A stretch of DNA of 38,477 bases from Acidimicrobiia bacterium (GTDB taxonomy: Bacteria; Actinomycetota; Acidimicrobiia; Spongiisociales; JAENVV01). Below, one piece after another: positions 17,043 to 36,802 of the stretch. The position numbers and the translations under genes were made by a program. Position 1 is the stretch's first letter; each line of letters opens with the position of its first letter. The notes beneath the pieces are model-generated. The model saw nothing but the letters and a program-made list of their open reading frames with translations. It was not told the origin of the DNA and ran no database searches. The stretch is taken from contig JBFGJH010000027.1 in NCBI GenBank assembly GCA_041577335.1, positions 1 to 38,477 on the forward strand. Reading direction: 5' to 3'.

Positions 17043-18242
17043 CTAGCGGGTCACTCCCGTGAAGAGTGCCACGACGGTGTCGGTGGGGTCCATCGCCCGC
17101 CTGGTGTCGTCGTCGAGAACTCCTGACAGGCCGGCCGTTCCGGTGGGCTCGACGTCGATGGTCGTGGTGGCGTGGGCGGCTTCGTGCACCTTCACCACCT
17201 GCTCTTCGGACACCACGACCGGCCAGCCGCCTGACTTCAGCATGGCTTTCACGACAGGCTGCCAGTCGTAGGTGACGTCGTCGAGGATGCCCGATGCCGC
17301 CGACATGCCAACTTCTTCCCAGGCCCACATGTAGTCGTCGGGCCTCGCAACCAGATTCTCGATCAGGTCCGACTCGGCGCCGGGGCTGGAGACGATGCGA
17401 TCGGCACGCTCCGGCCAGGAAGCGGCACTCACGGGCCGCGTCAGGAGTTCCCAGGCGCGTGGGAGGGGAGCGCAGGCTTCCGTCTGGACGGCATGCAGCA
17501 CTGGCGTGATGGCCGCGCCGTTCTCGCCGAGGCCCTGCACGAGGCCCTTCCAAGTTGCTGCCGCCAGAGCGCCGCCACCGATCTGAATGAAGACCCGCAG
17601 CGTTCCGGTCACGTCGTGCTCGGCGAGCTGGTCAGCCAGCTCCCATCCCATCGTGCGGCCACCGTCGATGGTTGTGGGGGTCACGGTCCCTTGCACCGAG
17701 AACGGGGTGGCGCCACCCTCGACGGCTTCCAGAAACCGAAGATAGGTGGGGTCACCGACCTCACCTTCTCGCCGCTCTTCCACCGAGATGTGGGCCCCGA
17801 GTGCGTCGAGCTTGTCGACGACCGGCTGCTCTGCCCATGTGGGAATGAACACTCGCAATGGCTGATCCATTGCCCGGGCGGTGACGGCTGCTGCCATGGC
17901 CGCGTTGCCACACGAGGCGATCGCCAACTCGCCAGACGGGCCGCCGGCGATTGCCTGATGCAGCGCCACGCCAAACAGGTGTCGTGACTTGTGCGAGCCG
18001 CTCACGTTCTCGGTGTCGTTCTTCACGAGGAGCCGGCTGTCGAGACCGATCGCTCGGGCGAGGTTGGCCTCATCGGTGACGGGAGTGGTTACGAACCCGT
18101 GTCCGTCGACCGTGGCAACGGCCGCATCGAGCTCCTCGACGAGGGCGACAAACCGCTCATCCGACCAGCCGGCATCGAGCGCGACCCGATAGCTGTCCAG
18201 CCTGGTGCGGTAGTGGACGAACGGGTTTGCGGATTCAGCCAA
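17043..18242 (-). CDS. Fold-type II PLP-dependent lyase, threonine-synthase-like
   Basis: [14 protein letters not shown] (PLP Lys), ASCGNAA, IGGGAL, EPTGTAG, VALFTG; TTG start overlaps the upstream stop. Confidence 0.8.
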
Positions 18243-19722
18243 GCGTCACTCCCGTGCGTGCGTTGAAGTCGTCGATCATCGTGTCCCACTGATCCGTCAG
18301 CTGATGCAGGCCCTGCCAGAAACTCTGGTCGCGACGCGACTCGAAAACGTCGAAGTCGATGCCCTGCTGTTCAACCCAGGTGTAGTACCCGAGGTTGAAG
18401 ATGCGCCGCCGACCAACTTCGCCGAGCTCCAGGACGTGTTCGGTGTCGGCTCCCTCCAAGAATCGGGCATGAGCTGCGGCAGCCGCCTGCTCGTCGAAGC
18501 CGTTGGGATGGTCGCGGTTCAGGATCTTGTCGATCTCGGAGACGTACAGCTCCATGCCGTCGGTGGCGACCGTCACGATCACATCGTCGGATCCCAGGCC
18601 GTGATACTTGGCGATCTTGATCGACGCGAGCATGTTGGCGATCGACGAAAACCCGAAGTGGCGCAGATTCTCGACGAGATCCGGGTCGACGCCCTGCGAA
18701 GCCAGGTACTTCTTGCCGACGTCGGTGTTGAACAACAAGAACAGGGTGTCGGTGGCCTTGTCCGAGATGGCCACGACGTCATCGGAGTTGGTGACGTTGT
18801 GGATGAGCGGGATGTGCTTGTCGCCGATGCCCTGGATGTTGTGCTCGCCGTATCCGTTGTACAACATCGTCGGGCATTCGAGCGCCTCGACCGGGACGAT
18901 CCGGGCACCGTGGTGTTCCTTGAGGTAGTCACCGGCACCCAGGGTCCCGGCAGACCCCGAAGCCGAGACGTAGGCGGCCAGGTTGCCGCCACCGGCATCT
19001 TCGAAGATGTGCTCGAGGGCCCGGCCGGTCACCCGATAGTGGCCGAGGTAGTTCCCGAACTCCGAGAACTGGTTGAGGATCACGTTCTGAGGGTCCTTGG
19101 CAAGCTCGCGGCAAGCGTCGTAGATCTCCTTCACATTCGACTCGGTGCCGGTGGTGCGGATGGTGTCTTCGGGGCTCCCGGTCCATTCTTCGAGCCAGTC
19201 GAATCGCTCCTGGCTCATACCCTCGGGAAGCACTGCCACGCCTTGGCAGCCCATGATCCGGCTGATGGCGACACCTCCTCGGGCGTAGTTGCCGGTCGAG
19301 GGCCAGATCGCTTTGTGGCTCGTGGGATCGAATGCGCCCGTGACGATGCGGGGAGCCAGACAGGAGTAGGCCGCCAGCACCTTGTGGGCGCGGATCATGG
19401 GAAATCGATTGCCGAGGGCAATGAGGATCTTGGCGTCGACGCCGGTCAGCTCTTTGGGCAGCTCCAGATACTCGGGTACGTCGGTCGCTCCCAGCCGATC
19501 GGAGGCGTTGTACCAGTTGACCCGCCACAGGTTGCGAGCGTCAGGATCGTCGGCCCCCACCCCTTCCAAGGATGAACGGGCTGCGGCGGGCGCCAACGAC
19601 GGATCTGCCAGCTGAGCGAACGTGGGCAACAGAATGTTGCGTTCGCGGAATCGGGTGACCGTGTTCTCGAGGGCGGTCTCGTTTTCGACTTCCGTGAAGA
19701 GCCCGAGATGCGCTGACGTCAT
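18235..19722 (-). CDS. Large fold-type II PLP-dependent enzyme (cysteine-synthase-like core) of unknown reaction
   Basis: AHKV (PLP Lys), PSTGNY, SGSAGT phosphate loop, IQGIG; GGAGG RBS. Confidence 0.85.
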
Positions 19723-19737
19723 TGCTTCCTCCTGCCG

Positions 19738-34276: not shown

Positions 34277-35275
34277 ATGAGAAACATACGCACGTTCCGC
34301 TATCTGCTGCTGATTGCAGTGATGGCGCTCATCGGAGCCGCATGCGGCGATTCGGGCGACGATGGAGGGGGCGATGGTGGCGGAGACGCCGACGGTATCC
34401 GCATCGCCATCGTGGGTCCTTCTGCGTCGAACGACCTGGCTTTTACTCAGAGCATCGTCGAAGGCGTCAACCGGCTCGATGGCGTCAGCGAGGCCGCTAT
34501 CACCGACGGCACCTTTGTCGTAGAGGACGCCGCCACTGCCATTCGCAATTACGCCGACGAGGGGTACGACCTGGTACTGGCCCACGGCTCGCAATACGGA
34601 GGGTCGCTCCAAGAGATCGCTCCCGATTTCCCCGACACTCAATTCGCATGGGGAACGGCAGCCGATACCTTTGGCCTCGCCAACGTATCCGCGTACGAGG
34701 CAGCCTCGGACCAGGGCGGCTACGTGATGGGCGTCATGGCCGCCGGACTGACTGAATCCGGCACGATCGGTGTGGTCGGGCCCATCGAGGTTGGCGACGC
34801 CAAGCTGTATGTCGATGGCTTCGTCAACGGAGCAAAGGCCACCGATCCGGGGGTTACCGTCACGGTCAACTACATCGATTCGTTTTCGGATGTTGCCCTG
34901 GCGTCAGAAGCGGCCGAGAGTCTCCTCTCGGTCGGCGCCGACGTACTGACGGGGACAGCTCAGATGACGGTTGGCGCCATCGGTGTGGCCAATGAGAACG
35001 GCGTTGCCTGGTTCGGTACACAGTCGAATCAGTCGAGTGTCGCCCCCGACATCGTGGTCGCCAACCAGGTGTATAAGTGGGAAGTGGTGCTCCAGGACCT
35101 CGTCGATGCGGTCGCCGCCGGCGATCTCACCTCGGAGGTCTACGAGATCAACTTCGAGAACGGTGGCCTCGTCATCGAATACAACGATGGGTACGACCTC
35201 GCCGACGATCTCGTCGATGCCGCCAACGCCGCCATCGACGGGCTCAAAGACGGCTCGATTACCACGGGCGCCTAG
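34277..35275 (+). CDS. BMP/PnrA-family ABC substrate-binding lipoprotein
   Basis: Lipobox GAAC; DLAFTQS, GYDLVLAHG, GYVMGVMAA, IGVVG. Confidence 0.9.
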   Translation: MRNIRTFRYLLLIAVMALIGAACGDSGDDGGGDGGGDADGIRIAIVGPSASNDLAFTQSIVEGVNRLDGVSEAAITDGTFVVEDAATAIRNYADEGYDLVLAHGSQYGGSLQEIAPDFPDTQFAWGTAADTFGLANVSAYEAASDQGGYVMGVMAAGLTESGTIGVVGPIEVGDAKLYVDGFVNGAKATDPGVTVTVNYIDSFSDVALASEAAESLLSVGADVLTGTAQMTVGAIGVANENGVAWFGTQSNQSSVAPDIVVANQVYKWEVVLQDLVDAVAAGDLTSEVYEINFENGGLVIEYNDGYDLADDLVDAANAAIDGLKDGSITTGA

Positions 35276-35293
35276 AAGGAGAACACCTCCGCC

Positions 35294-36802
35294 ATGACCG
35301 AAGGGCCAATGCTGGAACTCCGGGGAATCACCAAACGGTTCCCCGGAGTGCTCGCCAACGATGATGTGAGCTTCGACTTGAAGGCCGGGGAAGTGCATGC
35401 GCTGCTCGGAGAGAACGGGGCCGGCAAGAGCACCCTCATGAAGATCCTGTATGGGCTCTACGAGCCGGATGCCGGGGAGGTGCTGGTCAACGGATCGGTC
35501 ACGAGCATCTCCGATCCCGCAGACGCCATCGCGCAAGGTATCGGCATGGTCCACCAGCATTTCATGCTCGTGCCGAGCCTCACGGTCGCCGAGAATGTGG
35601 CGCTCGGTCTCGACTCATCGCGCCGTCCTTTCACCGATCTCGACAAGGTCGCTGCTCGGATTCGTGAACTTGGCGAAACGTACGGTCTCTCGATCGACTC
35701 CGACGCCGCCGTGTGGCAGCTTTCGGTGGGAGAGCGGCAGCGAATCGAGATTCTGAAGGCGCTGTATCGAGATGCGCACATCCTGGTGCTCGATGAGCCG
35801 ACCGCGGTGCTGACTCCCCAAGAGGTCGACGATCTGTTCGTGACGTTCGGCCGAATGACGGACGAGGGCAAAGGCCTGATCTTCATTTCCCATAAGCTGC
35901 ACGAAGTCCTCGAGGTCAGCGGACGCATCACTGTGATGCGGCTCGGCAAGGTGGTGGGAAGCGTCCAGACAGCGGAAGCCACCCGTCAGATCCTCGCCGA
36001 GCTGATGGTTGGTCGCGACGTCTCTTTTGTTCCCGACAAGGCGCCGAGAGAACCGGCCGAGGTTCTTCTCGCCATCCGCAACCTCACGGTCGCCGGCGAT
36101 CGGGGGCTCAATGCGGTGAACGGCCTCAATCTGGAGGTCCGGGCCGGCGAAATCGTTGGCATCGCTGGGGTTTCGGGAAACGGGCAGCGAGAGTTCGCCG
36201 AAGCCGTTGCCGGGATGCGGGACATCGAAAGCGGCACCATCGAATTGTCGGGAGTCGACATTGCCGGTGCCGGCCCGAGCATCGCTCGCGCCAATGGCCT
36301 CGGGTACGTGCCGGAAGAGCGTATGCACGAGGGCATGATCGGGGCGTTCACGGTCGCAGAGAATCTGATCCTCGTGCATCACGACGAAGACGAGTTCAGC
36401 AACCGGGGCATGCTGCGCTTCCCCGCGATCCGACGCCATGCCGAGCGGCTGGTGGAGGAGTACGCCATCAAAACCCCGTCGATCGATACCCACGGAAGTT
36501 CGCTCTCGGGCGGCAACATCCAGAAGATGATCATGGCCCGCGAGTTGGACGCCGAACCGGCTGTTCTGTTGGCGGCCCAACCAACCAGGGGTGTGGACAT
36601 CGGCGCCGCCGAGTACATCCACTCTCGCCTCATCGCTCAGCGAGACGCCGGGGTGGCCGTGCTCATGATCTCCGAGGATCTCGACGAGGTCCTGGCAGTC
36701 GCCGATCGCATCGCGGTGATGTACGAAGGAGAGATCACCGGCATCGTCGACGCCGGCGAGGCCAAGCGAGAAGACATCGGCCTGCTGATGGCAGGCGGCT
36801 GA
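35294..36802 (+). CDS. ABC transporter ATP-binding protein (double NBD, nucleoside type)
   Basis: [37 protein letters not shown]. Confidence 0.94.

Follow-up and report, generated by a model that had tools for sequence, protein, structure and literature searches.

The window analysed here is a 38,477-nt stretch of DNA, the entire contig C27 (JBFGJH010000027.1) of an Acidimicrobiia genome (GCA_041577335.1, hereafter G000; 3.38 Mb in 128 contigs, 90.75% complete), and it carries an island of 17 genes at positions 17043-36802. The genes lie exactly where the original prediction had placed them, in four transcription units. Unit 1 (17043-21333, minus strand) encodes two pyridoxal phosphate (PLP) enzymes that we call P399 and P495, an HTH_22 protein, a small protein and a deaminase; unit 2 (21531-24467, plus strand) encodes two carbamoyltransferases, CT1 and CT2, and a carbamate kinase; unit 3 (24706-25545, minus strand) consists of the CN-hydrolase CN1 alone; and unit 4 (25732-36802, plus strand) encodes a second CN-hydrolase, CN2, followed by Xdh, a SsnA-like and a YgfK-like protein, two permeases, a Bmp binding protein and an ATPase. 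We propose that this island probably encodes the form that the reductive pathway of purine and urate degradation (the 2,8-dioxopurine or 'yanthine' pathway) takes in Acidimicrobiia, an interpretation in which every function is assigned from homology and co-occurrence. The feature itself is real and conserved.

Reading frames overlap by 1-8 nt at the P495/P399, small protein/HTH, CT1/CT2, CN2/Xdh, Xdh/SsnA and Perm1/Perm2 junctions, the overlap being 4 nt both between the CT1 stop and the CT2 start and between Xdh and the SsnA start. CN2, Xdh, SsnA and YgfK are one translationally coupled operon as predicted from the gene layout, and this operon is the core of the island. The flanks are unrelated to the island, with a gene for SHMT and a 151-aa open reading frame upstream and an ABC exporter downstream. 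We assigned homology with Pfam and NCBIfam models at their curated cut-offs, matches to the Protein Data Bank (PDB), and AlphaFold (AF2) models searched with Foldseek; apart from small corrections noted below, the gene labels previously given to the island were right at the family level.

Searching with Xdh brought up at least 587 relatives, and the 80 best loci were retained; by their record titles, nearly all come from Acidimicrobiia metagenome-assembled genomes. Counts of loci are given out of 81 sources, the 80 loci plus the window, and are lower bounds, many of the loci being short. Xdh was called in 70 of these sources and short SsnA in 55, followed by CN2 (31), YgfK (28), the HTH_22 gene (24, usually divergent from the Xdh operon), P495 (21), P399 (17), a Thiamine_BP-like family to which the small protein belongs (15) and CN1 (14). 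CT1 (5), the deaminase (4), CT2 (3) and the carbamate kinase (2) were found in fewer. The loci also hold an F420-type luciferase-like oxidoreductase after SsnA (21) and an M20 enzyme of the carbamoylase/allantoate-amidohydrolase type (18). Because the parts of the island recur jointly in many related genomes, their arrangement in the window is not due to chance.

Upper-pathway proteins

Xdh (26682..29273, plus strand, 863 aa) is a fused [2Fe-2S] and molybdopterin hydroxylase without an FAD domain, with the Pfam domains Fer2_2, Ald_Xan_dh_C and MoCoBD_1/2. Its match to TIGR03311 (Se_dep_XDH), at 818.2 bits, is just under the cut-off of 830.45. Aligned to bovine xanthine oxidase (1fiq_C), it retains GGKE, ERA, AFRGFG and FL at the purine-binding positions, motifs that we take to hold Glu802, Arg880, Phe914 and Phe1009. 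As in reductive urate clusters, this molybdenum (Mo) hydroxylase is linked to SsnA and to a reductase, and we propose Xdh as a putative 2,8-dioxopurine dehydrogenase (urate 6-dehydroxylase), an activity predicted from its sequence.

The short SsnA (29270..30292, plus strand, 340 aa) retains the catalytic barrel of the amidohydrolases but is missing the N-terminal portion of the accessory domain. It scores 255.5 bits against NF005540 (cut-off 444), aligning to model positions 58-442 of 444 with the first 57 positions absent, and 239.2 bits against TIGR03314 (cut-off 455.5), below the equivalog level for SsnA. Across 43 relatives with a median length of 350 aa, the metal ligands HxH (H12, H14), H206 and D233 do not vary.

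The short YgfK (30304..32079, plus strand, 591 aa) has an FMN TIM barrel and a C-terminal domain for two [4Fe-4S] clusters, and lacks the FAD/NADPH module. Its start is the ATG at 30304, which stands behind a GGAGGAG box, not the first GTG of the open reading frame at 30055. The protein scores 443 bits against TIGR03315 (cut-off 835.3) and is not a full-length YgfK: positions 5-397 and 888-967 of the 1012 in the model are matched, and positions 444-836, the FAD/NAD(P)H part, are absent. Eight Cys of the two-[4Fe-4S] domain are invariant. The AF2 model (pLDDT 90.3, pTM 0.92) has pig dihydropyrimidine dehydrogenase (DPD) and DHODH as its top Foldseek matches. Among the best 150 YgfK representatives from a library of 1.84 billion proteins, 19 are shorter than 540 aa (probably fragments), 39 have 540-700 aa, 28 have 701-850 aa, eight have 851-950 aa and 56 exceed 950 aa; the short form is not peculiar to this genome. 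The streamlining of the upper pathway that had been claimed for the island is thus borne out, SsnA and YgfK both being truncated and the markers standing in one coupled operon.

Two further functions point towards purines. The deaminase (20326..21333, minus strand, 335 aa) belongs to the adenosine/adenine deaminases (PF00962, 301 bits). The original prediction had called it an adenine deaminase; a purine deaminase it is, but it passes the adenosine-deaminase equivalog NF006850 (518.7 bits, cut-off 419), and the choice between adenine and adenosine is undecidable from sequence. The ABC importer (32202..36802, plus strand) consists of two BPD_transp_2 permeases (PF02653 in each), a Bmp/PnrA-like binding protein (PF02608) and a double ATPase (PF00005), and is of the nucleoside type, with NCBIfam matches that are all under cut-off. 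Its four genes occur in 20-29 of the 81 sources, beside the Xdh operon.

SsnA, YgfK and Xdh might instead have been recruited to a non-purine substrate, such that the island degrades another N-heterocycle, for instance nicotinate, a pterin, a pyrimidine or a substituted hydantoin. All three proteins fall short of their family cut-offs, the nearest solved structure to the Mo domain of Xdh is nicotinate dehydrogenase (3hrd), the fold of YgfK is that of dihydropyrimidine and dihydroorotate dehydrogenases, and CN2 and CN1 come from families of the hydantoinase process and the pyrimidine pathway. We nevertheless consider such a substrate quite improbable. Xdh retains the purine-binding motifs of xanthine oxidase, and the island includes genes for a purine deaminase and for a Bmp/PnrA-type importer; the operons of relatives include subunits of a conventional xanthine dehydrogenase (XDH) and an 8-oxoguanine-deaminase-type gene; SsnA and uricase never occur together in the sample of 151 genomes described below; and a complete-looking, separate reductive pyrimidine cluster is already present on contig C43.

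Candidate enzymes for the ureido groups

Two sets of enzymes in the island may remove ureido groups, one by hydrolysis and one by phosphorolysis. In the hydrolytic set, CN2 (25732..26685, plus strand, 317 aa) opens the core operon and is a homologue of N-carbamoyl-D-amino-acid hydrolase (D-carbamoylase). It matches the solved D-carbamoylase 6le2_A over residues 4-308 (E 7e-100, 337 bits), and 1fo6 and 1erz as well. CN1 (24706..25545, minus strand, 279 aa) is of the beta-ureidopropionase/N-carbamoylputrescine-amidase type (PF00795, 223 bits; PDB matches 2vhh at E 1.6e-52, 5h8i and 6ftq), and shares 69% identity with the CN-hydrolase encoded in this genome's pyrimidine-degradation cluster on C43. 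The catalytic Glu-Lys-Glu-Cys is conserved in both proteins, with E53, K129 and C173 of CN2 common to CN1 and relatives. CN2 thereby combines similarity along its full length with the catalytic residues of a D-carbamoylase, its substrate being predicted from homology.

The phosphorolytic set is encoded by unit 2. CT1 (21531..22484, plus strand, 317 aa) resembles aspartate carbamoyltransferase (ATCase) and scores 250 bits against TIGR00670 (cut-off 237). CT2 (22481..23455, plus strand, 324 aa) resembles ornithine carbamoyltransferase (OTCase) and putrescine carbamoyltransferase; it scores 268.5 bits against the OTCase subfamily model (cut-off 306) and is nearest to OTCase, N-acetylornithine and putrescine carbamoyltransferases. 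The label 'YgeW-like' that CT2 had been given does not hold, as the YgeW models, with cut-offs of 453-500 bits, give it only 177-188 bits (and CT1 27-30 bits); CT2 is OTC-like instead. The carbamate kinase (23526..24467, plus strand, 313 aa) lies above its cut-off (NF009007, 378.8 bits vs 266). By likeness to carbamoyl-aspartate, we propose that CT1 phosphorolyses the alpha (2-) ureido group; CT2 is proposed to act on the beta (3-) ureido group by likeness to citrulline, because albizziin is a short homologue of citrulline.

PLP enzymes P399 and P495

P399 (17043..18242, minus strand, 399 aa) is a divergent, threonine-synthase-like PLP enzyme of fold type II (PALP, 113 bits). Its best NCBIfam match is the threonine synthase model PRK08197 (88 bits, cut-off 303) and its best PDB match the ThrC structure 2zsj (E 7e-15). 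P495 (18235..19722, minus strand, 495 aa) is a CysK/CBS-like enzyme of the same fold type with N- and C-terminal extensions (PALP, 53.6 bits), and scores 76-77 bits against the cysK models (cut-offs ~345-351). Neither protein reaches equivalog level as a cysteine or threonine synthase, and no close solved relative of either was found among the PDB matches. In databases P495 is named only 'PLP-dependent enzyme' or 'cysteine synthase'. Its AF2 model (pLDDT 91, pTM 0.92) has cysteine synthase, CBS and beta-cyanoalanine synthase as top Foldseek matches (E 1e-15), and by this search its core fold is that of an enzyme type working on beta-substituted alanines.

Both enzymes look active, as their sequences retain the PLP lysine, a Ser/Thr-Gly-Asn loop for the substrate and a glycine-rich loop for the phosphate. 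K114, STGN142-145 and G256-S-x-G-T260 of P495 are invariant in 27 sequences; Lys85, S110-x-G-N113 and GGG222-224 of P399 do not vary among 13 relatives, and the canonical ThrC-like partner found in other genomes has them too. P399 adjoins P495 in 17 of the 17 sources where it was called. Where an Xdh locus lacks the P399/P495 pair, a P495 homologue (48-50% identity) lies elsewhere in the genome, and these displaced homologues always adjoin a more canonical ThrC-like enzyme (PRK08197, 282-290 bits). We considered whether this partner might be YgeX; it is the ThrC-like protein just described. The two enzymes of the pair could be enantiomer-specific lyases, or could perform a beta-replacement followed by a dehydratase step. 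Prediction of a P399-P495 complex, in two runs without controls, gave a score of 0.00, which has no bearing for or against binding.

Co-occurrence across Acidimicrobiia

We examined a sample of 151 Acidimicrobiia genomes, 150 drawn evenly from those at least 80% complete, plus G000. YgeX-like genes were defined by E <= 1e-30 (none is over the model's cut-off), hydantoinases by E <= 1e-80, and island-type kinases by at least 61% identity. Short SsnA is present in 45 of the 151 genomes and in 32 of 81 genera. P495 is found in 40 genomes, all of them SsnA-positive, and in none of the 106 SsnA-negative ones. YgeX-like genes occur in 14 genomes, which include all five SsnA-positive genomes without P495; in four of those five the YgeX-like gene shares a contig with SsnA, within ~2 kb in two. 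P495 and a YgeX-like gene stand together in four genomes, and one or the other is present in 45 of 45 SsnA-positive genomes.

The ureido-group enzymes show a similar complementarity. CN2 is present in 38 genomes (37 SsnA-positive), the island-type carbamate kinase in 12 (all SsnA-positive), and hydantoinase in 55, among them 39 of the 45 SsnA-positive genomes. Seven of the eight SsnA-positive genomes without CN2 carry the island-type kinase, such that CN2 or the kinase is present in 44 of the 45; both are present in five, including this genome. The kinase shares a contig with P495 in 10 of the 11 kinase-bearing genomes other than G000. Six SsnA-positive genomes have no hydantoinase at all, and five of these use only the carbamoyltransferase/kinase set. 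Uricase was found in eight of the 151 genomes, all in one family (f2) and none SsnA-positive; within the 15 genomes of that family, three from three other genera are SsnA-positive and the eight with uricase are others. Matching patchy distributions of this kind inside single families are the strongest part of the co-occurrence evidence. The original prediction had called for such a survey of genomes, and in this sample the proposed substitutes do track SsnA.

Several P495 and CN2 homologues in the sample (e.g. G024:C1:2874099-2875568 and G047:C3:349220-350176) contain in-frame stops, mostly TGA, for which overhang of the match, assembly errors or selenocysteine are possible explanations.

In the 90.75%-complete genome of the window we found no canonical YgeX (best whole-genome score 44.3 bits, cut-off 532.25), no YgeY of the M20 family (best score 63.4 bits, cut-off 321.5), no uricase and no OHCU decarboxylase. 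Canonical ygeX and ygeY elsewhere in the genome, with no conserved linkage of the substitutes, had been named as grounds for rejecting the proposal; neither gene was found, and the substitutes are linked to SsnA across genomes. The claims that the lower pathway has been replaced by non-orthologous enzymes and that purines would be used without uricase both survive this comparison. All parts of the original interpretation that lent themselves to sequence-based checks agreed with the outcome. For oxygen-independent use of purines, also part of the original prediction, we infer it in a genome that also encodes haem-copper oxidases (subunit I, 519 bits).

These distributions bear directly on a different view of the locus, in which only the CN2-Xdh-SsnA-YgfK-ABC operon is purine-related and the remaining genes are unrelated neighbours: CT1 would then serve as the housekeeping PyrB, CT2 would team with the kinase in citrulline- or agmatine-type catabolism, CN1 would be an amidase of pyrimidine or polyamine metabolism, and P399 and P495 would be synthases that make threonine and cysteine. 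The position of CT1 above the ATCase equivalog cut-off, the identity between CN1 and the pyrimidine-cluster enzyme, the database name 'cysteine synthase' for P495 and the small number of the 80 related loci with CT1, CT2 and the kinase inside the island would all fit such a view. However, P495 is confined to SsnA-positive genomes and complementary to YgeX-like genes, and the island-type kinase is SsnA-positive in 12 of 12 cases, mostly beside P495. In G001 and G004, two of the relatives, the CT1 paralogue (242 and 273 bits) coexists with a canonical pyrB (301 and 359 bits), and a separate ThrC-like gene lies on contig C28 of this genome. Finally, in the related locus L117 (genome G139) a single operon unites CT1, CT2, the carbamate kinase (CK), a ThrC-like gene, P495, SsnA and YgfK (588 aa), in the order CT1-CT2-CK-ThrC-like-P495-SsnA-YgfK, beside a three-subunit XDH; no CN-hydrolase was found in that locus, and neither CN2 nor hydantoinase in that genome. 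We therefore regard a chance assembly of neighbours as unlikely.

A third view accepts purine chemistry for the upper enzymes and places different chemistry after them, without diureidopropionate, the PLP pair and carbamoyl enzymes acting instead on, e.g., aminomethyl-hydantoin or serine-type compounds. It would account for the lack of a linked hydantoinase in 80 loci and of any hydantoinase in six of the 45 SsnA-positive genomes, for the presence of two PLP enzymes rather than one, and for the truncation of SsnA. Yet each ureido-group set pairs an alpha type (D-carbamoylase or ATCase-like) with an omega type (beta-ureidopropionase or OTCase-like), as two ureido groups on a C3 amino acid require, and the replacement of P495 by YgeX-like genes in five genomes points to the same end product. 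On balance we find this view very unlikely too, and return to the reductive pathway with diureidopropionate as the reading that best fits the locus.

Probable regulators, related loci and other regions of the genome

Unit 1 also encodes what had been described as a two-gene regulator module. The first gene, for the HTH_22 protein (19738..20085, minus strand, 115 aa; PF13309, 69.3 bits), indeed encodes a likely regulator; the second proves to encode a small Thiamine_BP-like protein (20085..20354, minus strand, ~88 aa) that matches PF01910 (MTH1187/YkoF-like) at 25.7 bits (cut-off 24.9) and is 57% identical to the 81-aa cluster from 15 related loci. Its stop overlaps the HTH start by 1 nt, and its own start is uncertain, a 134-aa open reading frame from 20489 overlapping the deaminase. 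The Thiamine_BP-like protein is possibly a ligand-binding partner of the HTH protein, and the two together probably regulate the divergent operons. An inverted repeat common to the divergent promoter regions 21320-21545 and 25530-25745 was looked for, and only short, unrelated palindromes were seen.

In three of the related loci (L111, L115 and L120), CT1 and carbamate kinase join the ThrC-like/P495 pair in one operon, next to which lie CT2 and a GntR regulator. At L111:17699-18619, a formamidase/acetamidase-family gene and an MFS transporter stand beside this CT2-GntR-CT1-CK-ThrC-like-P495 module. In L112 (11318-12659), L113 (8585-9157) and L114 (9144-9713), one or two genes of the cytidine/dCMP-deaminase fold separate the P495-like gene from a second FAD/FeS/Mo XDH; they may encode an unstudied purine or pterin deaminase. 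A 486-aa protein with a PF01039 carboxyltransferase domain is encoded at L062:11282-12742 and in five other loci (e.g. L064:14697-16157), from sponge-associated relatives, between the F420-type reductase and the 8-oxoguanine-deaminase-type gene.

Two genes from the clusters of relatives were examined as candidates for missing functions and set aside. A 451-aa amidohydrolase, considered as the missing hydantoinase, passes the 8-oxoguanine-deaminase model (537 bits, cut-off 532), and the M20 gene, considered as YgeY, belongs to the allantoate-amidohydrolase/L-carbamoylase family instead (TIGR01879, 406 bits).

The genome's only D-hydantoinase/dihydropyrimidinase (574.6 bits) sits on C43. It belongs to a complete-looking reductive pyrimidine cluster (L019:3285-10252, G000:C43), in which a luciferase-like oxidoreductase replaces the classical dihydropyrimidine dehydrogenase and which also includes an aldehyde dehydrogenase, a class-III aminotransferase, a CN-hydrolase and an NMT1-type ABC system. 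A second purine locus (G000:C78:2046-12124) holds a conventional FAD/FeS/Mo xanthine dehydrogenase, a Bmp-type ABC importer and an amidohydrolase with 48% identity to the 8-oxoguanine-deaminase-type gene of the relatives' clusters. SelD is present (381 bits; L102:1501-2424, equivalent to G000:C64:8321-9244), with one in-frame TGA, and probably contains selenocysteine. In the window, outside the island, a gene for a DUF222 and HNH endonuclease protein (6410-7636) is likely a mobile or selfish element, and has a 36%-identical relative in L111. In a search of sequencing runs, five runs from two studies, with soil or marine metagenome as their label, contained at least 72% of the sampled sequence words, and one of the five may be the source sample; runs with lower shares were disregarded, and no RNA run was among those listed.

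Proposed pathway

In the pathway that we favour, the Bmp-type ABC system would import a purine nucleoside or base, the deaminase would convert adenosine or adenine into the hypoxanthine series, and the conventional XDH on C78 would carry the product to urate. The FAD-less Xdh would remove the 6-oxo group, converting urate to 2,8-dioxopurine. The short YgfK would then reduce the ring on FMN, taking electrons, by way of its two [4Fe-4S] clusters, from a ferredoxin-like donor instead of NAD(P)H, and the short SsnA would open the ring on the way to 2,3-diureidopropionate. Opening of the hydantoin could fall to SsnA, hydrolysing C4 twice, or to the C43 dihydropyrimidinase acting in trans. In the hydrolytic set, CN2 would act on the alpha-ureido group and CN1 on the beta-ureido group; in the parallel phosphorolytic set, CT1 would take the alpha and CT2 the beta group, and carbamate kinase would turn each carbamoyl phosphate into ATP. 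The ThrC-like/CysK-like pair, in place of YgeX, would convert 2,3-diaminopropionate or a ureido precursor to pyruvate and ammonia.

Several points weigh against this pathway. Xdh, SsnA and YgfK are all below their family cut-offs (818 vs 830, 255 vs 444 and 443 vs 835 bits). A hydantoinase (HyuA) candidate, whose lack the original prediction had passed over, is missing from the island and from the 80 related loci. CT1 is the only ATCase-scoring gene in this assembly and could be the housekeeping PyrB. The set of CT1, CT2 and island-type kinase occurs in only 12 of the 45 SsnA-positive genomes and is hence accessory. The need for two PLP enzymes is unexplained. A search of the genome found no YqeB, a selenium-cofactor marker seen alongside the pathway in gut bacteria. 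The co-occurrence counts overstate significance, since genomes related to one another are not independent samples, and are to be read as patterns rather than statistics. Genes in the related loci were called by a GC3 heuristic, which reproduced the map of the window and failed in some lower-GC loci.

A bolder version of the pathway joins four suppositions: that Xdh and YgfK exchange electrons through their Fe-S clusters, that SsnA hydrolyses C4 twice, that CT1 and CT2 phosphorolyse the alpha and beta groups respectively, yielding two ATP per purine, and that the PLP pair handles a beta-substituted alanine in a new way, with two enzymes. We consider it rather doubtful that all four hold together. 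If the electron exchange were true, hypoxanthine and adenine, which are redox-neutral with respect to reduced 2,8-dioxopurine, could be processed without external reductant, even by a cell respiring oxygen. Double hydrolysis by SsnA would make a hydantoinase unnecessary, and in the two-ATP form the two CN-hydrolases would be an irreversible bypass.

If the proposed pathway is correct, the reductive route would be a main means by which abundant marine, sediment and freshwater Acidimicrobiia use purines for nitrogen and energy; its markers are present in 45 of 151 genomes of this environmental class, where uricase is rare and never found with them. The pathway would also give testable functions to five unstudied enzyme types, namely the domain-minimal SsnA, the ferredoxin-type short YgfK, two new catabolic carbamoyltransferases and the PLP pair. 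Natural 'swaps' would be P495 for YgeX-like enzymes, D-carbamoylase for the carbamoyltransferase/kinase module and YgfK for the F420 enzyme, and these could be useful in pathway engineering, including urate-lowering probiotics. The main value of the analysis lies in its testable enzyme assignments and in placing a reductive purine route in abundant environmental actinobacteria.

Comparison with known systems

The pathway was solved in 2025 in gut anaerobes and, according to the text of Liu et al. (10.1101/2025.04.24.650524), is enriched in host-associated microbiomes. The E. coli cluster, as described in the text of Li et al. 2025 (PMC12507026), comprises xdhD-ygfM, ygfK, ssnA, hyuA, ygeW, yqeA, ygeY and ygeX. 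Like that cluster, the island groups a Mo hydroxylase, a YgfK-type FMN reductase and a SsnA amidohydrolase, and includes a carbamate kinase and a carbamoyltransferase that would yield carbamoyl phosphate, with pyruvate expected as the end product of a PLP enzyme. Unlike it, the island lacks the YgfM FAD subunit and HyuA, its YgfK is without the FAD/NADPH module, and its SsnA is ~100 residues shorter. In place of YgeW it has the ATCase-like and OTCase-like enzymes, in place of YgeY (an M20 peptidase) the CN-hydrolases, and in place of YgeX the ThrC-like/CysK-like pair.

Clostridial variants (C. sporogenes XdhAC/DOPDH and DOPOR; C. difficile XdhD-UacX-UacY) resemble the island in other respects. 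In the text of Liu et al. 2025 (bioRxiv 10.1101/2025.04.24.650524), XdhAC of C. sporogenes converts urate to 2,8-dioxopurine and NAD(P)H is not used, and in that of Li et al. 2025 (PMC12507026) a ferredoxin-type donor is suggested for UacX of C. difficile, which has an FMN and Fe-S architecture without FAD. The island shares with these variants the fused FeS and Mo enzyme without FAD and a reductase with FMN and Fe-S but no FAD domain, implying a ferredoxin-type donor. It would also share hydrolysis of ureido groups with C. difficile, where UacY cleaves one ureido group by hydrolysis rather than phosphorolysis. The differences are that the island reductase is a domain-deleted YgfK and not a PydA/PF01180 homologue, that the island has CN-hydrolases and not a D-aminoacylase-type amidohydrolase, that YqeB was not found in the genome, and that the host is an environmental actinobacterium with aerobic oxidases.

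Alternatives at single steps are already published: the texts of these two papers (PMC12507026; 10.1101/2025.04.24.650524) give YgfK, UacX or an F420-enzyme as reductase, YgeW or UacY for one ureido group, and YgfM as present or absent. They disagree on which ureido group YgeW removes. In the text of Li et al. 2025 (PMC12507026), the F420-type variant is mentioned for Chloroflexota only, and Actinomycetota are named only as a phylum holding SsnA. Like the Chloroflexota variant, 21 of our 81 sources have the F420-type luciferase-like oxidoreductase after SsnA, where the window has the short YgfK. We found no description of an actinobacterial variant in the published text, nor of a domain-deleted YgfK, a truncated SsnA, CN-hydrolase carbamoylases, twin non-YgeW carbamoyltransferases or a ThrC-like/CysK-like pair; such neighbourhoods may appear in figures and supplements, which lay outside this search.

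Three further systems share parts of the proposed lower pathway. CN2 is close to the solved D-carbamoylases of the hydantoinase/D-carbamoylase process, but the island has no linked hydantoinase. CN1 is a paralogue of the genome's beta-ureidopropionase, as in the reductive pyrimidine (Pyd) pathway, but stands in a purine context. The arginine deiminase pathway, with its catabolic OTCase and carbamate kinase, couples phosphorolysis of a ureido group to ATP formation from carbamoyl phosphate, as the island would; Liu et al. liken YgeW and YqeA to this pathway in their text (10.1101/2025.04.24.650524). Unlike that pathway, the island places two different carbamoyltransferases before the kinase, which would allow two ATP per purine, and would act on ureido-propionates, not citrulline. 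We take the gene content of the island to indicate a new 2,8-dioxopurine pathway variant, in which hydrolytic and ATP-yielding routes would run in parallel for both ureido groups.

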